From: an uncultured Candidatus Micrarchaeota archaeon
GTDB lineage: Archaea > Micrarchaeota > Micrarchaeia > Anstonellales > Bilamarchaeaceae
Assembly (NCBI GenBank): GCA_903835385.1
Contig: CAILMQ010000013.1
Location: forward strand, 2,687-66,686
Length of the DNA stretch: 64,000 nt
Direction: 5' to 3'
The position numbers and the translations under genes are program-made. Below the pieces are notes generated by a model that was given only the letters and a program-made list of their open reading frames with translations, was not told the DNA's origin and did not search any database. This document shows positions 5,188-59,647 of the stretch, one piece after another. Positions within the stretch are counted from its first letter, which is position 1. Every line of letters begins with the position of its first letter.

Positions 5188-5297
5188 ATTTTGTATGAAT
5201 GTGCTCACTTTTTGCTCAGTTCCGGATATTCTTCGGGTATGTCCCGGAAGCCTCTTTCGAAGCGCCGTAGATACCGTAGCTGCGGGATGCGTATTCT

Positions 5298-7292
5298 TCA
5301 TTTCGCATGCTTCTTCGTGTAAGGTATCAGCCCGCCTTCAAGCAGGATTTCAATCGCCCTTGGAGTCAGTTCGCATTTCGCCTTTATCTCCGCTCCCTTG
5401 GCCTTCAGGGTCACTTCTTTTCCCGCCTTGAGCTCCTCCCTGAGATTCGGCATCTCCACCATGTCGCCCTGGCTTATCTTTTCGTAGTCAGCCGGGTTCG
5501 CGAACGTGAGCGGGACAATCCCCCAGTTCATGAGATTGTCCTTGTGGATTCTCGCCCAGCTCTTGGCAATCACCGCGCGGACGCCCAGGTAAAGCGGCGC
5601 GATGGCAGCGTGCTCCCTGCTGGAGCCCTGGCCGTAATTCTCGCCTCCGACAACTATGCCTCCGCCCTTTTCCTTGGCGCGCTTGGGGAACGTGGGGTCC
5701 AGCTTTGAGAACACGAACTCTGAAATCGCCGGCACGTTGGAGCGCAAAGGAAGGATCTTCGCTCCTGCGGGCATTATGTGGTCGGTCGTCACGTTGTCCC
5801 CGACCTTGAGCAGCACTTCCTTGGAAAGCGACGCCTCCAGCGGCTTCAGCTCAGGAAGCGGCCTTATGTTCGGCCCGCGGATGATTTCCACCGGCTCCGG
5901 GCTGTCCGGGTCCGGTGGCTGTATTATCATGGAATCGTCCACTTCGGTCTTCGCGTTCCTTATCTTCGGAAACCATGTCGCCTTTGGCGACAAGTTCCCC
6001 GGCTCCTTCGGAGCCGAGGATTCTCCGAGCTTCCTCGGGTCAGTGAACACCCCGCTCAGCGCGATTGCAGCCGCGGTCTCAGGGGAAACAAGGTATGCCT
6101 TGGCATCCGCGGTCCCGCACCTGCCCTCGAAGTTCCTGTTGAACGTTCGCACGGTAACCGCTCCGGAGCGCGGAGCGAGTCCCATGCCTATGCAGGGGCC
6201 GCATGCGGATTCCAGAATCCTTGCGCCGGATGCGATGAGGTCCGCCAAAGCGCCGTTCTTGGCTATCATCTCGTACACCTGCCTTGAGCCCGGCAGGATT
6301 GCGAACGAGACCTCGGGATGCACTGTCTTTCCCTTGACTATCGCGGCTGCAATCATCAGGTCCCGATAAGACGAGTTCGTGCAGCTTCCGATTATGACCT
6401 GGTTGACCTTCTGCCCTTCCAGTTCCGACACCTTGCCCACATTGCCCGGGCTGTGGGGCTTTGCCACCATGGGCTCGATGGTAGAAAGGTCTATTTCTAT
6501 TCTTTCTTTGTAATCGGAGAACGAATCCGGCGAGAGCTCCGCCCATTGGTCCGCCCTTCCCTCGCTCTCCAGATACTTCTTCGTGACGTTGTCGGACGGG
6601 AATATGGACGTGGTGGCGCCCAGCTCCGCGCCCATGTTGGTTATTGTCGCGCGCTCAGGAACTGAGAGTGTCCTCACGCCCGGCCCGAAATACTCGAACA
6701 CCTTGCCCACTCCGCCCTTGACATCCAGCCTTTTCAAGAGCTCCAGTATCACGTCCTTTGCAGACACCCATGGCTGCAGCTCTCCGGTGAGCTTCACGCC
6801 CACGATTTTCGGCATGTTCAGGTAGAACCTGCCTCCGCCCATGGCGAGCGCCACGTCCAGGCCTCCTGCGCCGATGGCCAGCGAGCCCGCGCCTCCTGCG
6901 GTCGGCGTATGGGAATCCGAGCCGAGCAGGGTTTTGCCCGGCCTTGCGAACCTTTCAAGATGGACCTGGTGGCATATGCCGTTTCCAGGCCTTGAGAAAA
7001 GTATTCCGTATTTGGCTGCCACGCTCCTCAGGTAGTCATGGTCGTCGGCATTCATGAAATCCGTCTGGAGCGTGTTGTGGTCAACATAGCTCACGGACAG
7101 CTCGGTTTTGACGCGCGGAAGGCCCAGCGCCTCCCATTCCAGGTATGCCATTGTGCCGGTGGCGTCCTGGGTGAGCGTCTGGTCCATCCTTATCGCGATT
7201 TCGCTTCCGGCTGCCGGAAGCTTGCCGTCCACGCCGCCCTCTGCCAGATGCGCCGATAAAATCTTCTCCGTGATGGTTGCCATGAGATACAC
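5298..7292 (-). CDS. acn: aconitate hydratase (aconitase, AcnA/mitochondrial-type, 664 aa)
   Basis: Contains the aconitase family Fe-S ligand and substrate motifs (GSCTNSS, ACGPC, SRQV..., R...SSR). Confidence 0.9.
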   Translation of the reverse strand: MYLMATITEKILSAHLAEGGVDGKLPAAGSEIAIRMDQTLTQDATGTMAYLEWEALGLPRVKTELSVSYVDHNTLQTDFMNADDHDYLRSVAAKYGILFSRPGNGICHQVHLERFARPGKTLLGSDSHTPTAGGAGSLAIGAGGLDVALAMGGGRFYLNMPKIVGVKLTGELQPWVSAKDVILELLKRLDVKGGVGKVFEYFGPGVRTLSVPERATITNMGAELGATTSIFPSDNVTKKYLESEGRADQWAELSPDSFSDYKERIEIDLSTIEPMVAKPHSPGNVGKVSELEGQKVNQVIIGSCTNSSYRDLMIAAAIVKGKTVHPEVSFAILPGSRQVYEMIAKNGALADLIASGARILESACGPCIGMGLAPRSGAVTVRTFNRNFEGRCGTADAKAYLVSPETAAAIALSGVFTDPRKLGESSAPKEPGNLSPKATWFPKIRNAKTEVDDSMIIQPPDPDSPEPVEIIRGPNIRPLPELKPLEASLSKEVLLKVGDNVTTDHIMPAGAKILPLRSNVPAISEFVFSKLDPTFPKRAKEKGGGIVVGGENYGQGSSREHAAIAPLYLGVRAVIAKSWARIHKDNLMNWGIVPLTFANPADYEKISQGDMVEMPNLREELKAGKEVTLKAKGAEIKAKCELTPRAIEILLEGGLIPYTKKHAK

Positions 7293-30045: not shown

Positions 30046-31398
30046 TTATAAACTATTATTAGTTTGTAATACCTTGACGTAATATGCCCCCCGCGTTCTA
30101 CCGACTCTCCTTAGCAGTCCCCTTTTTATGAGGTCGTTCAGGTCTGAAACTGCCATTGGATGTGAAACTGCAGCCATTTTCTCGTATGTTTTTGAAGTTA
30201 GAGAAGGATTCTTTTCTAGGTATGATATAGCTCGTTTTTGCCGCTCATTAAGGTCTGCTCTAGCTATGTGCGATTTGTTGCATAGTGTCACTCTGAAGAA
30301 GCTTCCCAGCTCTTCAAAAATGGGTTCCGGCAAGCCCGTCTCTTTCATTGCTGAACGCATTCTTGGTATGCCTGTTGCAAACCCTTCAATCAGTTTAAGG
30401 TCGCGCAAGAGTCGGTAAGTTAAATGATTTCTAGGAACTGAAATACTGCCCAAAATCTGAAGGCTCAAACCCGTTGGCAGCGTGCCAGGGTTTATGAACT
30501 CAATTCTGTCATCAAAAATATTTATTTGAACTGCATCCCGACTTAGATAATCTCGATGAGTTAGGGCGTTTATCAGGGCTTCGCGTATAACTGGGAACGG
30601 ATATTCTGGTTGTTCCTCCCGCTCCAACTTTTCTATTTTTACGGCAACACGCGTATTCTTCTTTATGAACTCTTCAGCTTCCTTTAGGTTTTCCAAAATA
30701 GTAGCCTTGACAATCCTTGAATCGATTATGTCGACTGGCTGATCACCCCTAAATCTCACGAGCTTAATTTCATTTTGGGGTAAAAATCTGGCCGGTTCTT
30801 TTGCGAAGAATAGAATGGCTGTGTTTTTTATCCATGAGTCGCCATTTTTACCTAGCAACCCTAAGTTGAATAGGTATTCTTGAACTTTGGTCTCGTCGAA
30901 CACGAGTTCTGGCGACCGTTTCTTTACAAATTCTTGTATCTTGTTTATATTCAAATCTTCGAGCTTTGCTTGTGAGCGTGACTCGTCAAAAGAGAGGATG
31001 TGCCGGTTAATCAGATAATCCTGAAGCGTTCGCCCTTCCAGTTTGGTATTGCTACTGCCAGCGCGGTAATATACTATGCCCCCGAAGGTGCAAAACGCTC
31101 CTTGGCCAATTTGATAGATTTCGCATACTACTGTTTTCTTTCCTTCTTTCTCCTCAACAAAGATTTTGTGGAATGGAACTGGAGAAACTTGTTGTATCGC
31201 TCCTTCAAGGCGCTGTTGCAGCGAATCGATCTCTTTCGCTGGAACGCCTATTGTTTTACCATCATCTGCAATTCCAATAACTATCTTACCGCCGGAGGCG
31301 TTGGCGAAAGCGCAGGTAGTCTTGCTTATCTCTTTGAAATTTTCTACGCTGTGCTTGAATTCCAAGCCTTGGCTTTCCGTGTTCATAGAATCCACCAT
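30046..31398 (-). CDS. AlbA_2 (Schlafen-like) DNA-binding domain plus HATPase_c_4 ATPase protein
   Basis: N-terminal ...ESQGLEFKHSVENFKEISKTTCAFANASGGKIVIGIADDG...; the C-terminal winged helix resembles the RecG-C-terminal/AlbA_2 family (weaker call). Lies in a low-GC segment. The ORF-track N-terminal extension to 31899 is spurious. Confidence 0.6.
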   Translation of the reverse strand: MVDSMNTESQGLEFKHSVENFKEISKTTCAFANASGGKIVIGIADDGKTIGVPAKEIDSLQQRLEGAIQQVSPVPFHKIFVEEKEGKKTVVCEIYQIGQGAFCTFGGIVYYRAGSSNTKLEGRTLQDYLINRHILSFDESRSQAKLEDLNINKIQEFVKKRSPELVFDETKVQEYLFNLGLLGKNGDSWIKNTAILFFAKEPARFLPQNEIKLVRFRGDQPVDIIDSRIVKATILENLKEAEEFIKKNTRVAVKIEKLEREEQPEYPFPVIREALINALTHRDYLSRDAVQINIFDDRIEFINPGTLPTGLSLQILGSISVPRNHLTYRLLRDLKLIEGFATGIPRMRSAMKETGLPEPIFEELGSFFRVTLCNKSHIARADLNERQKRAISYLEKNPSLTSKTYEKMAAVSHPMAVSDLNDLIKRGLLRRVGRTRGAYYVKVLQTNNSL

Positions 31399-31436
31399 AT
31401 CGTTAAGTATCTGTAAATAATAATACTTAACAATAT

Positions 31437-31733
31437 TTAAAGATATGCACGTATGGCAAGCACCCACCCGATGCAGAAGGACAGTGTTTCCCTGTCGAAT
31501 GCCTTTTTCGTATAATTGTATTCCGCAGCCTCCTTGGGGAACATGCTTGAGAGTTCGGCATAGCTTAGGGCCGTGAATATGGCGATGGCTGCCGAGATGA
31601 GGAATGCGAGCCAGAGCATGTCCCCGGCGAGCCCGGCTCCGATGGCTATGAGCGCGTATATGCCCGCGCCCAGTATCACGCCTATGCCGTACATCGTTGT
31701 GCTGAATAGCCCGAGCCCGCGTTTGAGCGCCAC
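31437..31733 (-). pseudogene. N-terminal remnant (TM1-2) of an APC-family amino-acid permease, truncated after ~98 codons
   Basis: MALKRGLGLFSTTMYGIGVILGAGIYALIAIGAGLAGD...SYAELSSMFPKEAAEYNY is a canonical APC N-terminus. The reading frame stops exactly where the low-GC island begins. Confidence 0.55.
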
Positions 31734-31785
31734 GATTCATGCTGTGAAATCCCATTTTTAAAAATCTTCCTTCCGAAAGCCCCCT

Positions 31786-32784
31786 ATGGCCAAAAAACCA
31801 CAGACTGAAAGCCGCAAGAGGGACCATATCCAGATAGCCCTGGAAAAGGACGTGCAATACTGCCGCACCACCGGCCTGGAGCGGGCGGAGCTTCTCCACA
31901 ACGCGCTTCCTGAAGTGGATTTCGATTCCATTGACCTTTCCATGAAATTCCTCGGGAAGAAGATATCATGCCCCCTGCTCATCTCGGCCATGACCGGCGG
32001 CTATCCTGAAGCGAAAAAGATAAACGAGGAGCTTGCCGCCGCCGCGCAAAAGCACAACATCGCCTTCGCGCTCGGCTCCCAGCGCGCCATGCTCGAGAAC
32101 CCCGCGCTCAGGGAAACCTATTGCGTGAGGAGCGTCGCACCGGACATCCCGGTAATAGGCAACATCGGGGCAATGCAGCTCAAGAGCTGCCCGGTGGACA
32201 AGGTGCTCGGGCTCGTGTCCGCAGTGGAGGCGGACGCTCTCGCAGTGCATCTCAATCCGTTGCAGGAGGTAATCCAGCCAGAAGGCGACCGTGATTTCTC
32301 AGGCGTGCTTGCCGCAATCGCGAAGCTGTGCGAGAAATCCGGCGTGCCAATAATAGCCAAGGAGACCGGGACAGGAATCTCCCAGGACGTTGCGCTGAAG
32401 CTCAAGGAGGCGGGCGTGGCCTGGATTGACGTCGCAGGCGCGGGCGGTACATCCTGGTCAAAGGTGGAGTACGTGCGCAACGGCGCGACACCCGGCTTCG
32501 GGGAGTGGGGGATACCTACGCTGGATGCGCTCATAGAGTGCAGGGGCGTGCTTCCCATGATAGCCAGCGGCGGCATCAGGAGCGGCATTGACGCGGCGAA
32601 GTGCGTCGCGCTGGGCGCGGACTTGGCAGGTGCCGCCTATCCGTTCCTCAAGGCCCTGGGCCGCAGCCAGGCGAAGCTCGACGAGACGCTCACGCTCTGG
32701 GAGGCGCAGATGAAAAAGGCGGCTTTCCTCACCGGGTGCAGGACGAGGGACGAGCTCAAGAAGGCGAAGATGGTTTTCCGCTGA
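31786..32784 (+). CDS. fni: isopentenyl-diphosphate delta-isomerase, type 2 (FMN-dependent)
   Basis: TIM-barrel IDI-2 motifs (SAMTGG, ...GAGGTSW..VE...), 332 aa. Confidence 0.85.
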   Translation: MAKKPQTESRKRDHIQIALEKDVQYCRTTGLERAELLHNALPEVDFDSIDLSMKFLGKKISCPLLISAMTGGYPEAKKINEELAAAAQKHNIAFALGSQRAMLENPALRETYCVRSVAPDIPVIGNIGAMQLKSCPVDKVLGLVSAVEADALAVHLNPLQEVIQPEGDRDFSGVLAAIAKLCEKSGVPIIAKETGTGISQDVALKLKEAGVAWIDVAGAGGTSWSKVEYVRNGATPGFGEWGIPTLDALIECRGVLPMIASGGIRSGIDAAKCVALGADLAGAAYPFLKALGRSQAKLDETLTLWEAQMKKAAFLTGCRTRDELKKAKMVFR

Positions 32785-40007: not shown

Positions 40008-40575
40008 GTCTGTGCTTGACTTATGCATTGCCGCGCTCGACGCATCGAGCACGCTCGCGGTCGAATCTCGACCGCGACATCTCATTATCCAGTCTTTCGT
40101 TGTTTTACTTCTATGTTCCATGAATACGTGGGCTCCAATATTCTCAAGGCCACGTAAGTCGTTTTCGCGTTTTCACTTTAACGAACGCGCGAAGTAAAGT
40201 TCTACTGAAACTATTTAAAAACATGCACGGCAATAAGAAACGTCCGATGGGAGGTACAAACCAAACACCGAGCGACTGACGGAGCGCGAGTCGAATTGAA
40301 GACGACGTCTCTAAAGAAAACAGTAAGAATGAGAGAACAGAAAGAAAACAAGAGCCAGGTTGGCAGATCGGCTATGCGGCCGCCTGCAGTCGCCCGCTTT
40401 CTTGCGGGCGGCACAAAGCGGCACAGGGTGGTTCAACTCCTCCACCTGGCTTTTTTAGCGTCAGGGACGCGGGCAATCGCCCGGTCCTCGCACGCGAAGG
40501 AACCCGGCGTTTCCCCGGATGGCGAGCCCGGGCGAAGACATCTTTTTAAAAACTTCCACACATCCACTGCCGTAG

Positions 40576-41574
40576 GTGTGCGTCATGCAGCTTCACAAAA
40601 ATAGGATTTACGGAACCGTATCGGACAACCCGCAGAAGCATCCGCTGGAAAGGCATCCTCTTATCGAGCGGATTGGACGCAGAACGAAGCTCGCATTTGC
40701 AGGCGCGGCAGTGGCGGGCCTTGCATTCATAGCCTCGCCACAGAAAGTGAGCGGGCAGGACGATATGCGGTCCATCGCATCTGTTCTGAGCGGTCGTAGC
40801 AATGTGAACGCAAAGAACATCAATGGCAAGACCGCGCTCATGGATGCTGCAGGGGCCGGGCGCATGGGAGCAGTCGTTCTGCTCCTGGAAAACGGCGCCG
40901 ACGTGAATGCGAGGGACAAGAATGACGAGACGGCGCTCACGTACGCCGTAAAGGGCGGATACGCCAAAACAGCCGCTCTGCTCCTGGAAAAGGGCGCTTT
41001 TGTGGATGCGAAGTGCGGATTCACCCGGGTCGTACTCATGTGCGCTGCATCGTCCGGGTACACCGAAATCGTCAAGTTGCTCGTGGAACACGGTGCCTAT
41101 GTCAATAGGAGCGACCTCAGTGGTAAGACCGCGCTCATGCTCGCTGCAAAGGGCGGATACGCCGAAATCGCCGAGCTGCTGCTGAAAGGGCCTGGTGTGA
41201 ATGCAAAGGACGTATCAGGTTGGACCGCGCTCATGTACGCTGCATCTGCCGGGAGCGCAGAAACAGTCTGGCTGCTTCTGGAACATGACGCTAATGCGGA
41301 CGCGAAGGCCAAAGACGGCAAGACCGCGCTCATGAATGCCGCATCGGCTGGAAACCTAATTGCGGTCGGGCTGCTGCTGAAAAAGGGCGCCGATGCGAAT
41401 GCAAAGGACATCCACGGTACGACCGTGCTCATGTATGCTGCTAAGGATGGGCGCATAGAAATAGCCAGACTGCTCCTTAAATGCGGTGCTGATGCGAATG
41501 CAGAGGACTTATTTGGCCACACTGTGAGTGATTACGCCGAAAACCCAAAAATCTACGAGCGCCTGCATGAATAG
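40576..41574 (+). CDS. secreted ankyrin-repeat protein (about 8 ANK repeats) with N-terminal signal/anchor
   Basis: Repeated G.TALM.AA..G...V..LLE.GADVNA units. Hydrophobic LAFAGAAVAGLAFIASP near the N-terminus. Confidence 0.85.
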   Translation: MCVMQLHKNRIYGTVSDNPQKHPLERHPLIERIGRRTKLAFAGAAVAGLAFIASPQKVSGQDDMRSIASVLSGRSNVNAKNINGKTALMDAAGAGRMGAVVLLLENGADVNARDKNDETALTYAVKGGYAKTAALLLEKGAFVDAKCGFTRVVLMCAASSGYTEIVKLLVEHGAYVNRSDLSGKTALMLAAKGGYAEIAELLLKGPGVNAKDVSGWTALMYAASAGSAETVWLLLEHDANADAKAKDGKTALMNAASAGNLIAVGLLLKKGADANAKDIHGTTVLMYAAKDGRIEIARLLLKCGADANAEDLFGHTVSDYAENPKIYERLHE

Positions 41575-47955: not shown

Positions 47956-48951
47956 ATGGCCATTCTACAAAGACTACCCGCTCCGGATCCTAAGGCCCTG
48001 GAAGCGAGAGGACGGGCGATCTCAGACCACTTTGTGACGCGGATGGAGCCGATCATCAACATCCTCGAGGCAAAACAGATTCCAGGCGTTCGGGAGAACA
48101 CTAATGACAAGACGTGGCTTACTGATAGGAACGCCAAGGCCGAGGACAGCGAGTTCTTATCAGACGCGATGAAGGGCCGCCCGTCCTTCCTCGCACGCAT
48201 AGACGATGATTTCCGCGCCCTGGGCCGTGTCATCTGGGATGAAAGGGCGGTGAGTGCGGCAGCCGACCTCCTGCTTCCGCTTCTGGACGTATCGGAGAGG
48301 ACGTGCTTCGGCTATTACGGCCATCAGTACCGCACCATGCAATACGCCGAGATACTGCTGAATAAGCGGTCCATGTCTAATCGGTCCATGACGGATGCGG
48401 AACAGGCCGCGCAGCTGCTCGGAGCCCTGATGCACGACATAGGCAAGGCCGCAGTGCCAGGGGAGGTCCTGCGCATAAAGGGGAAACTTAGCGATCCGGA
48501 AAAGGAACTCGTCAATCTGCATCCAAGTCATGGCAAGTCCATCCTGCTTGCTGCATTCGCTTCGCTTGCCGAAGCCGGAACCCATATAGCGTATGGGGAT
48601 GTGATAATCGATATCGCATTCAGCCATCATGAAAGATACGGCGATACCGGGGGATACCCGCTGGGCATCCGTGGAACCGAGATATCGGTCGGCGCCAGGA
48701 TTACCGGCTTTTGCGATGCGATGGATAGCATGACAACCAATCGGATATACGACCGCCACCCGAAAACCTTCAAGCAGGCCAAGATCGAAGCGGTGAGGAA
48801 ACTGAACAAGCATTTCAACGGAACAATAGTCGTGGATTTCCTACGTGCTGCGAAAACTAACGAAGTTACGAAAATAATCCTCGATATCATAAAGAGTGCC
48901 GGCGCCATGCCGGAACAGGCGCCTCAGCGGGACCTTATCCAGTCAAAATAG
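47956..48951 (+). CDS. HD-GYP domain protein (cyclic-dinucleotide phosphodiesterase family)
   Basis: LMHDIGK (HD) and HHERYGDTGGYP (HHExxDGxGYP) signatures. Confidence 0.75.
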   Translation: MAILQRLPAPDPKALEARGRAISDHFVTRMEPIINILEAKQIPGVRENTNDKTWLTDRNAKAEDSEFLSDAMKGRPSFLARIDDDFRALGRVIWDERAVSAAADLLLPLLDVSERTCFGYYGHQYRTMQYAEILLNKRSMSNRSMTDAEQAAQLLGALMHDIGKAAVPGEVLRIKGKLSDPEKELVNLHPSHGKSILLAAFASLAEAGTHIAYGDVIIDIAFSHHERYGDTGGYPLGIRGTEISVGARITGFCDAMDSMTTNRIYDRHPKTFKQAKIEAVRKLNKHFNGTIVVDFLRAAKTNEVTKIILDIIKSAGAMPEQAPQRDLIQSK

Positions 48952-49520
48952 AGATTGACTGCAGCACCGTCAGTCGCCCTGTATTTTTCCGCATCGGGAC
49001 CACCTTTGGCTGCAGCACTTCTCGCCGCCTCCTTGACTTCGTCCAGGTCCTGAATCGCGTCTCCCATGATGGAAACCGTCCATCCCGACGCCTCCAGGGC
49101 GGCTCTCACAAGCCCGGCGTCATCCAGATGCGCCATGCTGAACCTCTTGAGCGGCTCACGCCCGATTTCGAGCTTTGGGTTGCGGCAGTGGTCGGAACCG
49201 ACATTGTCAAGGGCTTCGAGTATGGCGGCCTTCACCGCCCGGTCTCCGAAGCCGGGCTCGCTCTCGCGGGCGAGGGCATCAAGGAGGGGCTTGAAAGTAT
49301 GGAGATAACGCAGGTCTCCGAGAGTGGTTGCGGCAGCCGTTCGTTTCCCCGCTGATTCGCTTTCCAGTCCATTCACTGCTTCGGTGCATTGGCGCACCGT
49401 GCCAGGCTGGCTGCGCCGTACCCCCCGTTCGTGCTCCTGGCGCAAAATCGCCTGTACACGCTCCAAACCTATCGGTGGCGGCGTTCTGGATTCGTGACGT
49501 CTGACTGTTGCCGATTTCAT
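48924..49520 (-). CDS. short HEAT/PBS-lyase-repeat protein, paralog 1
   Basis: TLGDLRYLHTFKPLLDALARESEPGFGDRAVKAAILEALDNVGSD repeat units. Confidence 0.65.
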   Translation of the reverse strand: MKSATVRRHESRTPPPIGLERVQAILRQEHERGVRRSQPGTVRQCTEAVNGLESESAGKRTAAATTLGDLRYLHTFKPLLDALARESEPGFGDRAVKAAILEALDNVGSDHCRNPKLEIGREPLKRFSMAHLDDAGLVRAALEASGWTVSIMGDAIQDLDEVKEAARSAAAKGGPDAEKYRATDGAAVNLYFDWIRSR

Positions 49521-49532
49521 TTTGATTCCCGT

Positions 49533-49562
49533 ATTTTATTATGGATTTTGATGTTTAAATAC
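49533..49562 (-). promoter_or_regulatory. conserved promoter block (ATTATGGnTTTTGATGTTTAAA; TATA TTTAAAC in gene orientation) of HEAT paralog 1
   Basis: The same block lies about 30 nt upstream of both short HEAT paralogs. Confidence 0.5.
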
Positions 49563-49621
49563 CTTGTGTTAAGGATACAGGCCCGGCTCCGGACCACGAA
49601 TCCGGCAGGAACACGATTATC

Positions 49622-50200
49622 TCAAGAGCCTCTGACGGCGTTGAGCCAGAGGCCGCTTGCCGCCAAGTCGGTATCCTTATATCCAGCCTCGGCCGCCGCC
49701 TTCATGACATTTTCCATGTCCTCAATCGCTTCGCATCTCAGGCAGGTGTATTCCAGCGCCTTCAGGGCGCTCCTCACCAGCCCGGCGTCATCCAGATGCG
49801 CCATGCTGAACTTCTTGAGCGGCTCACGCCCTGCCGCGAGCGCCACCTGGCCGCAGTGGTCGGAACCGATGTTCCTGAGGGCTTTGAGCATGGCTGCCTT
49901 CACCGCCCGTCCTTCGTCGCCGGGCTCGCTCTCGCGGGCAAGGGCATGGAGGAGCGGCTCGAAAGAATAAATGGAACGCAGGCGCCCGAGTGTCTTCGCG
50001 GCGCTTTTGCGTTCTGCCGCCACCGCGCTTCCGAGCTGGTTCTGTGCCAGCGTGCATTCAAGCTGCGTACTGCCGTGGAGGCGCCGCAGCTCGCGCTTCT
50101 GCCGCGCGAGCACTATCGCGTATACATCCTCCAATCCCTTGGGCGCTACGGGCCAGTGGCGCCTGGCGGCTAGTTTGTCATTCCGGCTCATGTATGCCAT
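49622..50200 (-). CDS. short HEAT/PBS-lyase-repeat protein, paralog 2
   Basis: TLGRLRSIYSFEPLLHALARESEPGDEGRAVKAAMLKALRNIGSD. About 60% identical to paralog 1. Confidence 0.65.
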   Translation of the reverse strand: MAYMSRNDKLAARRHWPVAPKGLEDVYAIVLARQKRELRRLHGSTQLECTLAQNQLGSAVAAERKSAAKTLGRLRSIYSFEPLLHALARESEPGDEGRAVKAAMLKALRNIGSDHCGQVALAAGREPLKKFSMAHLDDAGLVRSALKALEYTCLRCEAIEDMENVMKAAAEAGYKDTDLAASGLWLNAVRGS

Positions 50201-50225: not shown

Positions 50226-50340
50226 TTGTAAGGCGGAGGGGGGAGGCCGGGATAGACGAAATATAGACGAGAGGTTAAGATAAGTCGGCAGGTCATCGCC
50301 TCCCGATAGGTCTAAAATCTTTGGGAAAGAAGTAGAATTC

Positions 50341-51381
50341 ATGAAAAGATTTGTGATACTGTTTCTGATTCTAGGGTTGTTTATTGCTGGCTGTACTCAA
50401 CAAGCCGAAACAAAAAATATAGGTTCAAACAAAACCATCTCGAACGAGACTCAAACCCAGCCGAATCGAACCGTTCCGCCTCAACAAGCACCCATACAAA
50501 CATACGCCTGCCCGGACGGAACGATTGTCACAAACTTGACAAATTGCCCAGCACAAACAGCTAATAACAGTCAAACAACTTCAGAAAACACCAGCATAAC
50601 AACATATGTATGCTTCGATAATTCGACAGTGGACGACTCAACAAAGTGTCCTCCGGCTCCGACCATCAATGTTTCTAAAGATTATTGCAGTGATGGAACC
50701 AAAAAGCTCGCTTGTTCTATAACAAAGCCCATTTTTTGTGACGTCAGTCTCGAACTCGTAGAGAAAGCCAGCAGATGCGGGTGTCCGGCGAATTCGGATC
50801 CTTATCAGGATACATGCTTACCGAGATGTTCCGACGGCACACATTCTGGTTCGTGCAGTTCTACTAAACCCGAAAAATGTTATAACGGAACATTGACAGA
50901 TGTTCCTGCGAGTTGCGGTTGCCCGGTAGGGTATAAATATGATGGTTCAACTTGTGTTGTTCATGTTATGTCACCCGAGGAACTTTTCGTGAATACCTCG
51001 GTCTTACAAAACAGGTATGCTGGATTGACTAACTTCGATGTAACTGTTGTTCGAGCCGGTTATTATGAAGAAACATCATTTTTAACTACGGAGCGATATA
51101 TTCGACTTGATATAAACATTAAGAATCGTGGAGACAAACCAGAATATCTATTTGCTTCTCATATGTCGCTTGTCGATAGTAATAACCACCAATATTCGGA
51201 AACTTATGGCGGCACTTTTGAAGGTGGGGAATTTCAATCGGGAGTAGAAAGTAGTGGGTCGGTTTTATTCGATTTAGGAAGTTCTACGATGCCGGATGAA
51301 GTAACCTTGCACATCGATGATGGGTACGATAATAACTTCAAAATAATCGTTAAAACAGTTATAATTACATTAAAGAACTAG
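50341..51381 (+). CDS. Cys-rich secreted lipoprotein (lipobox IAGC) with repeated CPDGT modules
   Basis: MKRFVILFLILGLFIAGCTQQ signal/lipobox, at least five CP(D/A)GT/CGCP repeats. Low-GC gene. Confidence 0.6.
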   Translation: MKRFVILFLILGLFIAGCTQQAETKNIGSNKTISNETQTQPNRTVPPQQAPIQTYACPDGTIVTNLTNCPAQTANNSQTTSENTSITTYVCFDNSTVDDSTKCPPAPTINVSKDYCSDGTKKLACSITKPIFCDVSLELVEKASRCGCPANSDPYQDTCLPRCSDGTHSGSCSSTKPEKCYNGTLTDVPASCGCPVGYKYDGSTCVVHVMSPEELFVNTSVLQNRYAGLTNFDVTVVRAGYYEETSFLTTERYIRLDINIKNRGDKPEYLFASHMSLVDSNNHQYSETYGGTFEGGEFQSGVESSGSVLFDLGSSTMPDEVTLHIDDGYDNNFKIIVKTVIITLKN

Positions 51382-51426
51382 TTCGCCTCTCGACATGTCT
51401 AAAAATCTTGGGAAAGTAACAAATAC

Positions 51427-51804
51427 ATGGAAAAAGTCGTGATGCTGATTCTGATTTTTGGTTTACTCTTTTATGGTTGCACAAATCAAATCACCGGAAA
51501 TGTTTTGAATCAACATGCTGCAGTTGGTTGTTGGGTTTCAAACAGTTTGGCTATTGCAAAGATTGAGATAAACTCTGACGATACATTCGCAGCGTATACG
51601 CAAAATCCTCAGACTGGAGCATATTCAGTGGCATATAAGGGCAAATGGGTTGCAGAAAACGAAACGACGATTATAATGTCATATCAACTAAATAACGATA
51701 TTGTGAATCAAACAGCGACATATGTAGAAAGTACCGATTCCGTAGTAACATCAATATTAATCCCAATGGTTGGTCAGTTCCCAGAAACATTGTATAGATG
51801 TTGA
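51427..51804 (+). CDS. small lipoprotein (YGC lipobox), paralogous signal peptide
   Basis: MEKVVMLILIFGLLFYGCTNQ. Its upstream block is nearly identical to that of the 50341 gene. Confidence 0.45.
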   Translation: MEKVVMLILIFGLLFYGCTNQITGNVLNQHAAVGCWVSNSLAIAKIEINSDDTFAAYTQNPQTGAYSVAYKGKWVAENETTIIMSYQLNNDIVNQTATYVESTDSVVTSILIPMVGQFPETLYRC

Positions 51805-51901
51805 ACATGTATGAAAGTTATACCCAGAGCGCGCTCTGGCTCCGTTTTGGAGGGGAACGAGACGCCCTTACATTTAAATCGCTTGACGTTGTAGTGAAAT
51901 T

Positions 51902-53164
51902 ATGAAATTTGGATTCGTTGTATTACTTATTTTCGGACTTTTTATTGCTGGTTGCACCCAACCGACTACTCCACAACCAAAACAGACATATTTATGCCCT
52001 GATGGAAGCATTGTAACCCAGATTTCAGATTGCCCCAAAGCAATACAAACATATTCCTGTCCAGATGGTTCAGTAGTCACAGACATGTCTTCTTGCCCGA
52101 AGCAGACCTGTCCAGATGGAACCGATTACGGTTCTTGTTCTAATCTAAAGCCAATGTTCTGTCAAAATGGTCAGTGGATACCTAATGCCTCCGCGTGTGG
52201 TTGTTCCAGCGGATACGATATATCCGGGGACAATTGCGTTCCGCATGTAAATACCTGTAGTGATGGTACGATGTACGATGCCTGCTCTTTAACGAAACCC
52301 AAATATTGCTCTAATCTAGGACTTCTAATTGATGATGCCTCCACATGCGGTTGCCCTAGTGATTACGATACCTCTGGCAATGGCTGTACTCTCCACATAA
52401 GTTCCAACACGAATAGTTATAGTTTTACATCATATGAAAACACAGAGCCGTATTATAGCGCGTTTTGTGATAAAATTGACCCATATGATTTGAGTGTTCG
52501 TAAAGCTGCTGCAGATGCTATTAGAACCGATCCAGGGTCTTATAGCGTCAGTCAGCTTTTTGATATTTATGATTGGGTAATACAAAAGATATTTTATCAA
52601 AATTCTCCTTTAGCGGGTACTCCTTTCCCCCCATCAGAAACTTTAACGACTGCCTCCGGGGATTGCAAAAATCAGGCAGTTCTGATAGCATCCATGGTTC
52701 AAGCAATAGGTGGAACAGCCGAAGTTGTTGCAGATCCGACTTGCTCTCATGCGTATGCTGTAGTGTATTATGGTCCGTCTGGAAGCGATATGAGCTCCTT
52801 TACGCAAGCAGTTGCTAATCATTACGGTTCAAGTGTTAACGTACACTACTTTACCCATAACAATGGCTTCTGGATCATCTTTGATCCGGTTGGTGGAGCA
52901 TATCCTGGAGATACAATGCCCGAATGCAGCGGAAGCGAAGATCGTTATTTTATCAAAAGTTGCTTGGAATGTGTCCACCAATTTTCCAATGAGCCATACA
53001 CGTATGGTGATAGATGCTACTCTCAATGTCCATCTGGAACAATTACAGCGAACAAATATGCCTGCCAGCCTTGTTCAAAAGGCTCTTATAGCTGTAATGA
53101 TCAGTGTCTAACCTGTCCTTCCGGGTATTATATGGCCACCAATTGCAGGTGCTACAAATCTTAA
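51902..53164 (+). CDS. Cys-rich lipoprotein with transglutaminase-like cysteine-protease core
   Basis: MKFGFVVLLIFGLFIAGCTQP signal. CPDGS repeats. SGDCKNQAVLIASMVQAIGG...H...D matches the transglutaminase-like C-H-D pattern. Confidence 0.6.
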   Translation: MKFGFVVLLIFGLFIAGCTQPTTPQPKQTYLCPDGSIVTQISDCPKAIQTYSCPDGSVVTDMSSCPKQTCPDGTDYGSCSNLKPMFCQNGQWIPNASACGCSSGYDISGDNCVPHVNTCSDGTMYDACSLTKPKYCSNLGLLIDDASTCGCPSDYDTSGNGCTLHISSNTNSYSFTSYENTEPYYSAFCDKIDPYDLSVRKAAADAIRTDPGSYSVSQLFDIYDWVIQKIFYQNSPLAGTPFPPSETLTTASGDCKNQAVLIASMVQAIGGTAEVVADPTCSHAYAVVYYGPSGSDMSSFTQAVANHYGSSVNVHYFTHNNGFWIIFDPVGGAYPGDTMPECSGSEDRYFIKSCLECVHQFSNEPYTYGDRCYSQCPSGTITANKYACQPCSKGSYSCNDQCLTCPSGYYMATNCRCYKS

Positions 53165-53246
53165 TTATTAAAAATTTTCAATATAAAGCTTCTAATGGCG
53201 CTAAAATACCTAAAGTTTAACTTAGAAAATATAAAGGCCACGCCCA

Positions 53247-53295
53247 GATTGAACTCGTGACCTCGTCCTCTTCGGAGACAAAAAGCCTTACCTTC
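53247..53295 (-). other. partial duplicate of tRNA-Thr (anticodon, intron-start and 3'-exon segments), candidate attachment-site remnant
   Basis: GGTAAGGCTTTTTG...GGACGAGGTCACGAGTTCAA(A)TCT is shared with the intact tRNA-Thr at 54494-54643. It lacks the 5' exon and the acceptor 3' end. Confidence 0.4.
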
Positions 53296-53845
53296 CTTCC
53301 CTGAACCTTCTCCTGTCCTTTTTTATCTGGGATTTCAGGGCGAATCTTCCATACGGGGTTTCCTTGAACTTCGCGCCTTCTATGCTTTTTACCTTGTGGA
53401 AGACGATTTTATTGCCGTAATACGACAGTATGGCGGCTATCTTCTTCGCCCTGAACGATTTTTTCCTTTCGTTCCTACGGATTCTCTCGGCAAGGTCGAT
53501 TCTGCCGCTGCGTTTTGTATTTACAACGTGAATTTCACCCGAAGGAGTCCATTTCAGGCCAAAAAATTCTTCGGCGGTAGTGCAACTAAAGTAAAAGTCT
53601 CCTGTGGCGAGGTAAAGCTGTAATGCTTTTTTGAGGGCCAGGCTAGGCCTATCGATGAACCATGCTTTTTTTTCTTCCGGTGATGGCACGTAATAAATCC
53701 CTTTAAACGGGGTGGGGAAGAGGTTCAGCGACGCGCTTAAGTTTTTTATCTGGGGTCCGCTCAAACCGTCTTTGATCAACTGACCGAACTGTATGGCCTG
53801 CTTAGGAAGCATTTTCAACGACCTCGTTAAAGAATTTGTAATCAT
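53288..53845 (-). CDS. hypothetical protein, partner of the AbiEii-like gene (possible antitoxin-like component)
   Basis: 185-aa basic protein. Overlaps the upstream nucleotidyltransferase gene by 44 nt. Low-GC. Confidence 0.4.
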   Translation of the reverse strand: MITNSLTRSLKMLPKQAIQFGQLIKDGLSGPQIKNLSASLNLFPTPFKGIYYVPSPEEKKAWFIDRPSLALKKALQLYLATGDFYFSCTTAEEFFGLKWTPSGEIHVVNTKRSGRIDLAERIRRNERKKSFRAKKIAAILSYYGNKIVFHKVKSIEGAKFKETPYGRFALKSQIKKDRRRFREGR

Positions 53846-54392
53846 CTTCGCTTGTAATATACTCCTTTATCCCCTCTAGGTTATCCGGCCGGCCATATTT
53901 GGCAAGTAATTCTTTTACCAGGTCGAATCCCCTGTCCATCTTTTTTAAGATGAAAACGATGTCAAACAGGTCGCGGGCGGCTTTCCTGTTTGCGTATGCT
54001 TCCAGTTTCATCACAAGAAGATCATCCAATGACGCAACGGATAAAGGCACGCCTGAAACTTCGAAAGTCTCTATCTTTTTTATTTTTGCGGTCGGATAAA
54101 AAATCTCTATTTTTATGCTTGTATCCTCAAACTGGACCACAAACTGATTCGTATGGCTGGCAACAGATGTTCTATACCCCTTTTTGGTAAGACAACCCTT
54201 CATCATCTCCTTTAATTTGACTTCATCTCCTTCCAAAGGAACAAAGTCCAAATCAACGCTTACTCTGTGGTTAAGATAGAAAATGGCGAGCGCAGTCCCT
54301 CCAACCAGGATGAGCCGGTTTTGTGCGCATGCGGCAGTGTCGCTGAGGATTTCGAAAACCCGTTTGTATTTGAGGGCGAACTTCTGATTCAT
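53802..54392 (-). CDS. AbiEii/DUF1814-family nucleotidyltransferase (type IV toxin-antitoxin/abortive-infection toxin-like)
   Basis: LILVGGTALAIFYLNHRVSVDLDF matches the GGTAL...R.S.D.DF signature. Confidence 0.6.
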   Translation of the reverse strand: MNQKFALKYKRVFEILSDTAACAQNRLILVGGTALAIFYLNHRVSVDLDFVPLEGDEVKLKEMMKGCLTKKGYRTSVASHTNQFVVQFEDTSIKIEIFYPTAKIKKIETFEVSGVPLSVASLDDLLVMKLEAYANRKAARDLFDIVFILKKMDRGFDLVKELLAKYGRPDNLEGIKEYITSEDDYKFFNEVVENAS

Positions 54393-54493
54393 GAAACCAT
54401 ATCGAAAAGCAGGTTTATATGTGTTTCTGCTAGGTTAGATAAAGTTTAACCTAGATAAAACAGCTACGAGAGCCTATTTTTAATGGAAAATTA

Positions 54494-54643
54494 AGCCCTC
54501 GACGAGATTTGAACTCGTGACCTCGTCCTTTTTGCGGCGTTTGACTTGCTTACCTCAGGGCTTTTTCCAGGGTTTTTGCCCGTATAAGGGCGTAAGTCAA
54601 AAAGCCTTACCAAGGACGCGCGCTACCACTGCGCTACGAGGGC
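54494..54643 (-). tRNA. tRNA-Thr (anticodon GGU) with a canonical-position (37/38) intron of about 85 nt
   Basis: Minus strand: GCCCTCG-TA-GCGC-AGTGGTA-GCGC-G-CGTCC-TTGGTA[intron]A-GGACG-AGGTC-ACGAG-TTCAAAT-CTCGT-CGAGGGC-T. All four stems are perfect. Confidence 0.75.
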
Positions 54644-58540: not shown

Positions 58541-59591
58541 TCAGGTTGCCGGCCCTTCCTCGCGCGGCGCCTCATATCCCCATTCGGCCCGATGCCTCAG
58601 GAGCGTCTCGCGCATTTTCTTCTTGCCTTCGCTTATTATCTGCATCACCCGTTGCCTTGAGACGTGGTTATCCATCCCGATCTCAAGTGGCGTGCGCGGC
58701 TGGCAGCCGCCCACTCCGAACTGGCTCCGTATCATGCCCGCTTCCCTTGGTTTCAGCGTGGCAAGCAGCCTTTCCGCAATCTCCCTTTGCGAAAGCATCT
58801 CCTCAGGCGTCCCGGCGCGCCTGTCCGGAATCATTTCTATGCGCCTCGGCCCGTCCCTCGGGAGCTTTTGGTGCATGCTGATTATCCTGGGCACCGAGGA
58901 GGAATTGATTATGGCGCTCCTTCTGAGCCCGGTCCCATCCGCTATCTCGTCAATGTCCGGGTACCTGCCGGTGAGGCAGAAGCGGGCATTTGAGAATTTT
59001 TCCACCCTGTTGGTCACAAGATGCAGATAGGGCGGCTTCCTGATTTCATTTCCTTCCTCATATACCAGGAGCCACATGGCCCGCTTTGCCCAGTCCATCG
59101 CATAGCTGTAGAACCTGGTGCCCCTTTCCAGGTCGAATTTGGGCATCGCGTATTTCACGATGGCCGCCTCGCCGACCTGGACAAGGTCCTCGACCTTGAC
59201 GCCTGCGGGGCGCCTTATTCCCCTGGCTTTTTTCCAAACCAGCCTGCCAAGCCCCCGCGTGACTATGGTTTCAGCAAGCCCTTTCGCCTCCTCAAGCCGC
59301 TTAAGCTCCTGGCTTATGGCCGCAGAATCCTCGTTTGCCTTGCTGCCCAGCGTTTTCGCCAGTTCTTCCATGCGCGCAAGCGCCTGCCCGTAAATCGCAA
59401 ATAACCTGCGCTCATCCGGTTTGGATATGCGCTCCTTCTTCTCCGCTGCGAGTTGCTGCAGGAACTGCATATCCGGAGTTTTCACAACCGGCCTGTGGGC
59501 ATCGGTCCTGCATTGGACCAGCCGCAGGGCCGGGCGGTTGCATTCAAAAGCAGTGCGAACGATCATTCTTGCTGTGCGCATGGGAAAATAA
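58541..59591 (-). CDS. sigma-70-family protein homolog 1 (regions 1.2/2/3/4)
   Basis: DLVQVGEAAIVKYAMPKFDLERGTRFYSYAMDWAKRAMW...IRKPPYL parallels RpoD region 2 ([44 protein letters not shown]). Region 4-like REAGMIRSQFGVGGCQPRTPLEIGMDNHVSRQRVMQI. Start placed at MRTARMIV downstream of the conserved promoter block (the track ORF starts at 59638). Confidence 0.8.
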
Positions 59592-59593
59592 TT

Positions 59594-59637
59594 TGATAAG
59601 ATTCGCGTATAAACCATCGCATTTTGTGACTGCCACA
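59594..59637 (-). promoter_or_regulatory. conserved promoter block (TATA TTTATACG about 26 nt from the ATG) of sigma homolog 1
   Basis: aataatttgataagattcgcgtataaaccatcgcattttgtg. A near-identical block lies upstream of sigma homolog 2. Confidence 0.55.
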
Positions 59638-59647
59638 ACTCTTCCTG

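Follow-up and report, generated by a model that had tools for sequence, protein, structure and literature searches.

The stretch of DNA analysed here (the window) comprised 64,000 nucleotides of contig CAILMQ010000013.1 (positions 2,687 to 66,686, forward strand) from an uncultured Candidatus Micrarchaeota archaeon. The window derives from the chromosome of a Micrarchaeota (DPANN) archaeon, and its genes included those for ATP-citrate lyase, isocitrate dehydrogenase, Cdc6/Orc1, aRF1, hydrogenase and mevalonate kinase. The last of these was 90% identical to the mevalonate kinase of the complete chromosome OY970229.1, an uncultured Micrarchaeota metagenome-assembled genome (L001). An intron-containing tRNA-Thr(GGU) gene, a two-gene putative toxin-antitoxin (TA) cassette of 1.25 kb with an AbiEii/DUF1814 nucleotidyltransferase, a partial copy of the tRNA gene and a block of lipoprotein-like genes were located side by side in a region of low guanine-plus-cytosine (GC) content (Table 1). 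The GC profile gave 0.37-0.47 over 50.2-54.8 kb and 0.55-0.65 on either side, with 0.438 for the cassette, 0.413 for the lipoprotein block and 0.55-0.58 for the flanks. An earlier note on this DNA, made from its letters, had proposed an AT-rich islet inserted beside the tRNA gene, and the compositional break that it assumed was evident in this profile.

The tRNA-Thr(GGU) gene was recovered by two methods. Rfam model RF00005 scored 55.1 bits on 54494-54643(-) against a gathering score of 29; the match covered the whole model and placed 80 inserted nt in the anticodon loop. With its intron search switched on, ARAGORN called tRNA-Thr(ggt) at c[54494,54643] and put a 78-nt intron, i(37,78), at position 37/38. 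The anticodon-loop intron suggested by the earlier note was therefore present, at 78 nt rather than the ~85 nt given there. ARAGORN run with the bacterial code returned zero tRNAs in the window, and the Thr gene was the sole tRNA that Rfam reported in the window at its gathering threshold. Taking out the 78 nt left exactly the 72-nt intron-less gene of L001 and of a second related locus, L012, with exons 100% identical. The pre-tRNA was predicted to fold into a cloverleaf whose anticodon arm is extended (z = -3.6).

The partial copy was in the same orientation as the gene and 1.2 kb downstream of it in the tRNA direction. Positions 53249-53272 matched the start of the 3' exon (54509-54532) at 23/24 nt, and positions 53276-53292 matched the anticodon and intron start (54595-54611) at 16/17 nt. 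The 20-mer GGACGAGGTCACGAGTTCAA occurred exactly twice in 64 kb (0 expected), and GGTAAGGCTTTTTGAC occurred twice at two or fewer mismatches (0.07 expected). Gapped alignment extended the repeat as far as about 53228, across a degenerate stretch that corresponds to T-stem, acceptor and trailer, with a score of 54 against a shuffle maximum of 29. Most of the intron was gone from the copy, as had been described. The 19-nt mini-intron that remained was identical at 10/11 positions to the first 11 nt of the long intron (p = 0.002), and its end also resembled the end of the long intron by eye. A second tRNA gene, which the earlier note had named as the alternative identity of the fragment, was ruled out because the fragment lacks a 5' half and cannot form a paired T-stem.

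Table 1. Features of the tRNA-Thr(GGU) locus (window coordinates).
Feature	Position	Strand	Basis or remarks
Low-GC block with three lipobox-bearing, cysteine-rich lipoprotein-like genes	50233-53236	+	GC 0.413; synteny; Pfam
Lipoprotein-like gene	50341-51381	+	DUF4352 weak, sub-threshold (22.8 bits, cutoff 25.9)
Lipoprotein-like gene	51427-51804	+	
Lipoprotein-like gene, transglutaminase-like	51902-53164	+	Pfam
Weak second copy of the palindromic operator region of the cassette	53200-53229	.	77% to 54429-54458; repeat search
Partial direct tRNA copy (attR-like)	53228-53292	-	Anticodon and intron start, 19-nt 'intron', 3'-exon piece, degenerate rest
Partner gene (putative antitoxin/autorepressor), 174 aa, operon gene 2	53288-53812	-	Longest open reading frame 53288-53845
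AbiEii/DUF1814 nucleotidyltransferase (putative toxin) gene, 196 aa, operon gene 1	53802-54392	-	Pfam; PADLOC
tRNA trailer and cassette regulatory region	54393-54493	-	CTCGTAGCTGTTTTA motif, palindrome, BRE/TATA-like box, start codon
tRNA-Thr(GGU) (attL-like end)	54494-54643	-	5' exon 54608-54643; intron 54530-54607; 3' exon and discriminator 54494-54529

The nucleotidyltransferase gene was intact, and the family named for it in the earlier note was borne out. The 196-aa protein matched Pfam AbiEii (PF08843) at 67.6 bits (cutoff 22.5) and PADLOC AbiEii at 78 bits. Residues invariant across 25 homologues were G31, G32, T33, D47, L48, D49, F50, E96, K129, R136, R140, D141 and D144. More than 200 homologues were found, mainly in Micrarchaeota. 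The second gene overlaps the first, as had been noticed, by 11 nt when read from its probable start at M12; this start agrees with the gene calls on a public contig bearing an identical protein. The TAA stop of the partner fell within the anticodon-like GGTAA of the tRNA fragment. Homologues of the partner numbered 189, at 44-92% identity.

Searches of Pfam, NCBIfam and PADLOC returned no match to the partner, and a profile search of the PDB was also empty. Distant relatives of the partner family had no Pfam match either. Comparison with canonical Micrarchaeota AbiEi (PF09407 plus PF13338) by hhalign gave a probability of 0.1%. A profile search of 1.84 billion proteins recovered a small, closed family, mainly from Micrarchaeota/DPANN (15 representatives at 50% clustering). 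The AlphaFold2 model of the partner had a predicted local distance difference test (pLDDT) value of 93.9. Its two best distinct PDB fold matches were Rv2827c (prob 0.99, E 0.014, template modelling (TM) score 0.45) and Streptococcus agalactiae AbiEi 6y8q (prob 0.85, E 0.047, TM score 0.36). On this model, the partner is predicted to be a two-domain AbiEi-like winged-helix protein. The toxin gene preceded the partner gene at 72/72 loci, with the two overlapping or close (gap -7 to +69 nt).

The regulatory region contained the conserved CTCGTAGCTGTTTTA motif and a 25-nt palindrome, CTAGGTTAAACTTTATCTAACCTAG, at 54430-54454. A B recognition element (BRE)/TATA-like sequence, ACACATATAAAC, abutted the palindrome, with the start codon about 25 nt beyond. 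One layout was found 5' of the toxin gene among the 61 loci examined: a CAGTCGAT..TGTTT-like motif, the palindrome, the BRE/TATA-like element and a start about 25 nt later. The operator palindrome had a 9-12-bp stem with the consensus CTAGATTAAAGAAAGTTTAATCTAG. It took the CTAG..CTAG form in 37/61 loci, and the variants printed were still palindromic. By analogy with AbiE, where autoregulation via inverted repeats has been described (PMC3985639, PMC7319586), the predicted operator fits a dimeric winged-helix autorepressor.

The partner would neutralise the toxin and repress the operon. In L012:5868-6001 (also in L013, L014 and L019) the AbiEii open reading frame (ORF) was cleanly deleted (window 53846-54388) and the promoter was kept. 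This lineage carries an antitoxin-only allele, with the partner retained at 92% identity, and this natural deletion of the toxin alone would fit an antitoxin role for the partner. Up to five further loci (L043, L054, L065, L082 and L091) had a partner and no toxin match within at least 700 nt upstream.

The cassette was more similar between genomes than were its surroundings. Nucleotide identity to L012 was 90-91% in the cassette vs 76-80% in the flanks. Identity to L016 was 84.1% over 1189 bp (window 54480 to 53294) vs 64-69% in the flanks. Cassette GC was 0.41-0.45 across hosts with GC of 0.52-0.61. Judged from these sequence comparisons, the cassette is horizontally mobile between Micrarchaeota genomes.

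Eighty metagenome loci were gathered via the partner protein. Cassette contexts among them were diverse, and tRNA-Thr was adjacent in just three. These three, together with L012-L014, L016-L017 and L099, amount to three lineages with a tRNA-Thr link besides the window. tRNA-Thr was rejected as the general target of the cassette on the same count. The L001 genome carries the cassette at a second, non-tRNA site (L015), where it abuts a HEAT_2-like gene. An exact 12-nt direct repeat, GCAGCACGGGCG, at 5261-5272 and 6540-6551 flanks the L015 cassette (p = 0.05). Upstream of this repeat, a stretch resembling a tRNA-Thr 3' end plus trailer, GGAGGCTTTCTAGTCTG (compare GGGGGCTTTCTAGTTTT of L016), was seen by eye.

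The upstream and downstream flanks of the cassette were compared for direct repeats at 52 loci with enough flank, and p<=0.005 was considered significant. Nine of the 52 loci, the window included, had significant repeats, and these derived from the 3' ends of neighbouring genes. The repeats ranged from 23 to over 180 nt, at 83-98% identity. Those from the 3' end of a 469-aa ORF matched at 178/182 nt (L058) and 95/99 nt (L070), and that of L067 matched at 70/84 nt and came from the 3' end of a convergent 797-aa ORF. Further repeats matched at 59/68, 42/53, 26/30 and 20/23 nt. The right copy began -7 to +105 nt from the partner stop, and the left copy ended 95-370 nt before the toxin start. Because the copies hug both cassette ends, the repeat-bounded unit is the cassette alone; at the other loci it likewise comprised only the 1.3-1.6-kb cassette, at unrelated targets. 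No common attachment (att) core was found, the repeats at seven independent targets sharing nine or fewer nt of low complexity. No relative of the cassette was found among IMG/VR viral contigs, and viral structures gave no meaningful match; a virus or plasmid origin was rejected on these grounds.

The slot after tRNA-Thr was compared in related genomes, a check suggested by the earlier note, and its contents differed in L001, L012 and L016. Four groups of related loci shared either a mevalonate kinase - DUF2666 - tRNA-Thr neighbourhood or the link between tRNA and cassette. In L001, the closest complete genome, the tRNA-Thr exons were identical to those of the window, with no intron. The slot (L001:8136-8877) held another low-GC TA pair, a DUF2283 protein and a weak BrnT-like toxin, and ended in its own tRNA 3' remnant (p<0.003), followed by a HEAT-like gene that also borders the window island. 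The trailer of the L001 remnant was closer to the trailers of the window and L012 than to L001's own. In L012, L013, L014 and L019 the exons were again identical and the intron absent, with the same trailer and operator as in the window. L012 had a decayed tRNA remnant (p about 0.005) with the HEAT-like gene directly after it and without the lipoprotein block. L016, L017, L020 and L099 had a tRNA-Thr with two introns, in the D-loop and at 37/38 (L016:4449-4602; L099:811-965), and the same cassette at 84% nucleotide identity. In L016 an additional 177-aa gene was present between tRNA and cassette. The more distant L084, with a different upstream gene, had a tRNA-Thr(GGU) with an 83-nt intron at 37/38 (L084:1703-1857) and the cassette after it.

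Three further observations concern these loci. Exon pieces of a tRNA-Thr(GGU) split at three or more places were present at L002:2154-2367, and multi-intron tRNA-Thr genes were missed or mis-called by Rfam at gathering threshold and by ARAGORN. By eye, GGCCTTTnTATT was present in both the window fragment and the L099 remnant and in neither tRNA. The HEAT-like paralogues that border the variable slot were in tandem (window 48924-50200(-); L001:5824-8055), with a 668-bp period and 74% nucleotide identity; in relatives the copies numbered three or four, plus a fused one of double length.

Region 53288-54480 is, on balance, probably a compact, self-contained and mobile TA cassette, specific to Micrarchaeota/DPANN, which entered by a crossover between a small circle and the chromosome. 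Cassette homology to L012 and L016 stopped at 53290-53294 and tRNA homology began at 53292, which places the junction at the anticodon triplet. On the other side, homology to the L016 cassette began at 54480, 13 nt past the tRNA 3' end. Junctions in these places are those expected from one reciprocal crossover that joins a circle of about 1.3 kb to the chromosome. The cassette would have arrived on small circular DNA of about that size, bearing a copy of the 3' part of its target (the anticodon loop of tRNA-Thr(GGU), an intron, the 3' end and the trailer). One reciprocal crossover in the common segment would have rebuilt a complete tRNA gene on one side. On the far side it would have displaced the partial copy, which would later have decayed towards its 3' end and kept little of its intron. 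The integrated module could then have stabilised itself as an addiction or abortive-infection module. For the crossover itself, host homologous recombination (Campbell-type) is somewhat favoured over a site-specific integrase supplied in trans, because no recombinase was found, the repeats vary in length and identity, and the targets are unrelated and share no core.

Several observations weigh against this account. Neither a circular form nor an empty site was observed, and no recombinase was seen. A tRNA remnant after the cassette was only marginal in L099 (p = 0.07), and none was found in L016 or L084. Identity of the window fragment to the gene was uneven, with 24 nt near-exact and the remainder at about 60%; such a pattern calls for a mosaic origin, gene conversion or uneven decay, and the first two fit it better than plain decay does. 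The fragment also contains a short intron-like insert, where the simplest crossover models predict a full intron or none. Across the family, the flanking repeat was not significant at 40/52 loci. The link between partner and AbiEi was at the fold level only, with specific Foldseek matches whose TM scores of 0.36-0.45 are under the usual same-fold score. The weak operator-like copy at the near edge of the lipoprotein block may be what remains of an earlier cassette copy or of an arm of the incoming element. Confidence in this feature is low because its register is ambiguous against the trailer alignment.

An extension of the circle account concerns the intron, and we regard it as possible rather than probable. 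A recombinase-free selfish cassette that carries the 3' end of its target would integrate by a single crossover, and the 78-nt intron of the window would thereby have been acquired or exchanged via a mobile element. The AbiEii/partner pair may then spread among DPANN archaea while an intron moves between the att copy and the live tRNA-Thr(GGU) gene. Close relatives had 0, 1 or 2 introns in this gene. The long introns of the window, L084 and L099 began alike with AGG(G)CTTT and shared a small visible internal motif. Global alignments of these introns were not significant (p about 0.3) and no homology is claimed. As for a C/D-box guide RNA, CUGA was present in the window intron and no C box was seen by eye. 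The window intron may have been gained via an element, or an intron may instead have been lost from L001 and L012.

The putative splicing motif was read from the sequence as a bulge-helix-bulge (BHB) register in which positions 32-35 pair with the four intron bases before the last two. In the window the central helix, U32 U33 G34 G35 / GCAA, had three pairs and a G-G mismatch. The motif is therefore relaxed and not the strict hBHBh' (4-bp helix, two 3-nt bulges). In the same register the helices were perfect in L084 (AUGG/CCAU), in L099 (UUGG/CUAA) and in the fragment of the window (UUGG/CCGA). A broad-specificity epsilon2 endonuclease has been described in ARMAN/Micrarchaeota (PMC3239211), and an enzyme of this type would plausibly tolerate the relaxed motif.

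A larger element with its own recombinase was also considered. The cassette could be the cargo-only remnant of a larger plasmid or virus that entered tRNA-Thr site-specifically with a pNOB8/SSV-type tyrosine integrase and afterwards lost this and other genes, or could have been mobilised in trans by such an integrase, in the manner of a cis-mobilisable element; we consider this rather unlikely. The anticodon loop is a known crossover position among the integrase sublocation classes, and the boundary in the window falls there. A second low-GC block adjoins the cassette, and tRNA-Thr(GGU) has a precedent as an integration site in Caldiarchaeum (PMC3293823). An integrase was sought in the island, which contains only the two TA genes, and in 20 other window ORFs of 258-617 aa, and none was found; the integrase or att core that the earlier note had suggested seeking elsewhere thus did not appear among these ORFs, nor did a core among the repeats. 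The repeat-bounded unit at other loci was again only the small cassette, at unrelated targets and with no common core, and the cassette was missing from IMG/VR viral contigs. Of the tRNA-targeted integration that had been proposed, the repeat bracket, the foreign GC, the variable slot and the mobility stand; an integrase, a tRNA-specific cassette family and a core do not.

Improbable, in our view, is allelic replacement by homologous recombination with DNA of related Micrarchaeota, with the invariant tRNA and the HEAT-like paralogues as anchors and the fragment imported ready-made. The tRNA exons were 100% identical between species whose flanks were about 80% identical, HEAT-like paralogues lie at the edge of the slot in the window, L001, L012 and L015, and the string common to the window fragment and the L099 remnant would fit such an import. 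Replacement accounts for transfer, but does not say how the repeat arose, and elsewhere the flanking repeats adjoin non-repeated genes.

A local tandem duplication or unequal crossover that copied the tRNA 3' part and trailer beside vertically inherited TA genes would suit a repeat that runs past the tRNA into the trailer, and perhaps the operator, as well as the occurrence of the same cassette at the same junction in L012, but is very improbable, as the cassette is far more conserved than the housekeeping flanks, is foreign in composition, occurs in many unrelated contexts (including the second site in the L001 genome) and is followed by a fragment of sharply uneven identity.

The cassette, taken as the mobile TA module favoured above, was compared with known systems. 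It shares the DUF1814/AbiEii nucleotidyltransferase motifs (GG(T/S), DxD, E and K..R..RD.D) of the AbiE type IV TA systems, such as AbiEi-AbiEii of Lactococcus and S. agalactiae and Rv2827c-Rv2826c of Mycobacterium tuberculosis (MenAT family). As in AbiE, the operon has two overlapping genes, a two-domain partner and an inverted repeat at the promoter, which in the cassette is a predicted operator, and the best fold matches of the modelled partner were Rv2827c and AbiEi. In the AbiE rule of Dy et al., the regulator gene lies ahead of the nucleotidyltransferase gene (PMC3985639). The cassette differs from AbiE in its invariant toxin-first order, in its short toxin, in its archaeal promoter and in a partner from a tiny family without a sequence-level match to AbiEi families (COG5340/PF13338). 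The label 'AbiE-like' used in the earlier note consequently holds for the toxin family, the overlap and the inverted repeat, and does not hold for the gene order, which is reversed, or for the partner, which is not recognisable by sequence as AbiEi. We read the cassette as one that would work like AbiE, yet departs from it in these two respects. Both orders occurred together in another Micrarchaeota contig (JAUSHJ010000027.1, L102:789-5809), where three modules lay within 6 kb: a ribbon-helix-helix (RHH)-PIN pair, a canonical-order AbiEi (225 aa) then AbiEii (249 aa), and a reversed-order cassette. This looks like a small TA/defence cluster.

A precedent for the tRNA side is the tRNA-Thr(GGU) gene of Caldiarchaeum subterraneum, for which Sugahara et al. 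(2012) proposed that an intron can enter the tRNA gene from an intron-bearing attP (PMC3293823). There, part of the tRNA is repeated in direct orientation 1.2-1.8 kb away from the gene, at the border of an insertion, and the number of introns varies among very close relatives (PMC3293823). The isoacceptor, the tRNA-fragment direct repeat flanking an insert and the variable intron number in relatives are common to both loci. The Caldiarchaeum fragment is the 5' part of the tRNA, lies upstream, and flanks an insert that encodes a recombinase, whereas the fragment in the window is the 3' two-thirds, lies downstream, and flanks an insert with a TA pair only. The phylum and the intron position (37/38 here) also differ. 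Archaeal SSV- and pNOB8-type elements, as summarised in the same source (PMC3293823), resemble the locus in the rebuilt tRNA, the 3'-part repeat at the far border and the foreign composition. The locus differs from them in having no intact or split integrase gene, in a unit of about 1.3 kb and in sister cassettes that sit at protein-gene 3' ends.

Recombinase-less segments bounded by att-like repeats are also known in bacteria. The cis-mobilizable elements (CIMEs) of Streptococcus integrative and conjugative elements and the decayed 'tycheposon' arrays at Prochlorococcus tRNA genes have this structure and stack with other islands. CIMEs and tycheposon cargo have identifiable parents that encode an integrase and use one att core; they originate from these parents and rely on them. 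The cassette is similarly a small recombinase-less segment bounded by att-like direct repeats, beside a tRNA and another island. For the cassette, in contrast, no parent element and no common core were found.

The lipoprotein block beyond the tRNA fragment was missing from L001 and L012, and the synteny with L001 broke at about 50232. As it is absent from both close relatives, the block is read as a second insertion, beyond the tRNA fragment. Its homologues were in DPANN archaea, with a best non-self identity of 60%. A third, older tRNA remnant at its left edge was plausible by eye and was dropped as not demonstrable (p 0.1-0.6). At its near edge, only the weak operator-like copy was found. 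The adjacent island suggested by the earlier note is thus upheld in its low GC and its absence from both close relatives, while a tandem att-bounded structure is unproven because its far edge showed no tRNA remnant.

Other features of the window were recorded. A tRNA-Cys(GCA) gene with a 27-nt intron at 40353-40452(+) was absent from the Rfam matches at gathering threshold, and the intron-search run of ARAGORN alone detected it; it is followed by an ankyrin-repeat ORF (40576-41574). A second low-GC spot at 30046-31899(-) (GC 0.45 in a 0.58 background) encoded a 617-aa protein with Schlafen AlbA_2 and HATPase_c_4 domains, which may be a foreign or defence-type gene. The ORF at 58541-59638(-) matched Pfam Sigma-70 regions 2 and 4 at 27.6 and 26.6 bits, barely over the cutoffs, in an archaeal genome; an orthologue was present in a related genome (L012:390-1739).

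The locus is of a recognisable kind: a small foreign islet that carries a TA module, adjoins a tRNA gene and has a tRNA repeat at its border, and as such a fairly ordinary integration scar. Both tRNA-adjacent islands and mobile TA modules are already familiar. New in form are the reversed-order AbiE-like module with its unclassified antitoxin family, the recombinase-less repeat-bounded unit at many targets, and the intron-bearing att region in a lineage with variable tRNA intron content. As the antitoxin family is invisible to Pfam and PADLOC, automated defence annotation would score an orphan AbiEii across Micrarchaeota. The 1.3-kb cassette, an apparent mobile unit without a recombinase, offers a simple test case for how minimal selfish modules move in DPANN archaea, a group in which little is known of how genes are exchanged. 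The related loci provide a natural allele set, in which tRNA-Thr(GGU) has 0, 1 or 2 introns, the toxin is present or absent and the slot has different occupants. This set bears on the gain and loss of archaeal tRNA introns and on the possible role of integrating elements in it. Intron shuttling, if true, would be a second natural instance, in another archaeal lineage, of the model in which tRNA introns arrive with integrating elements.

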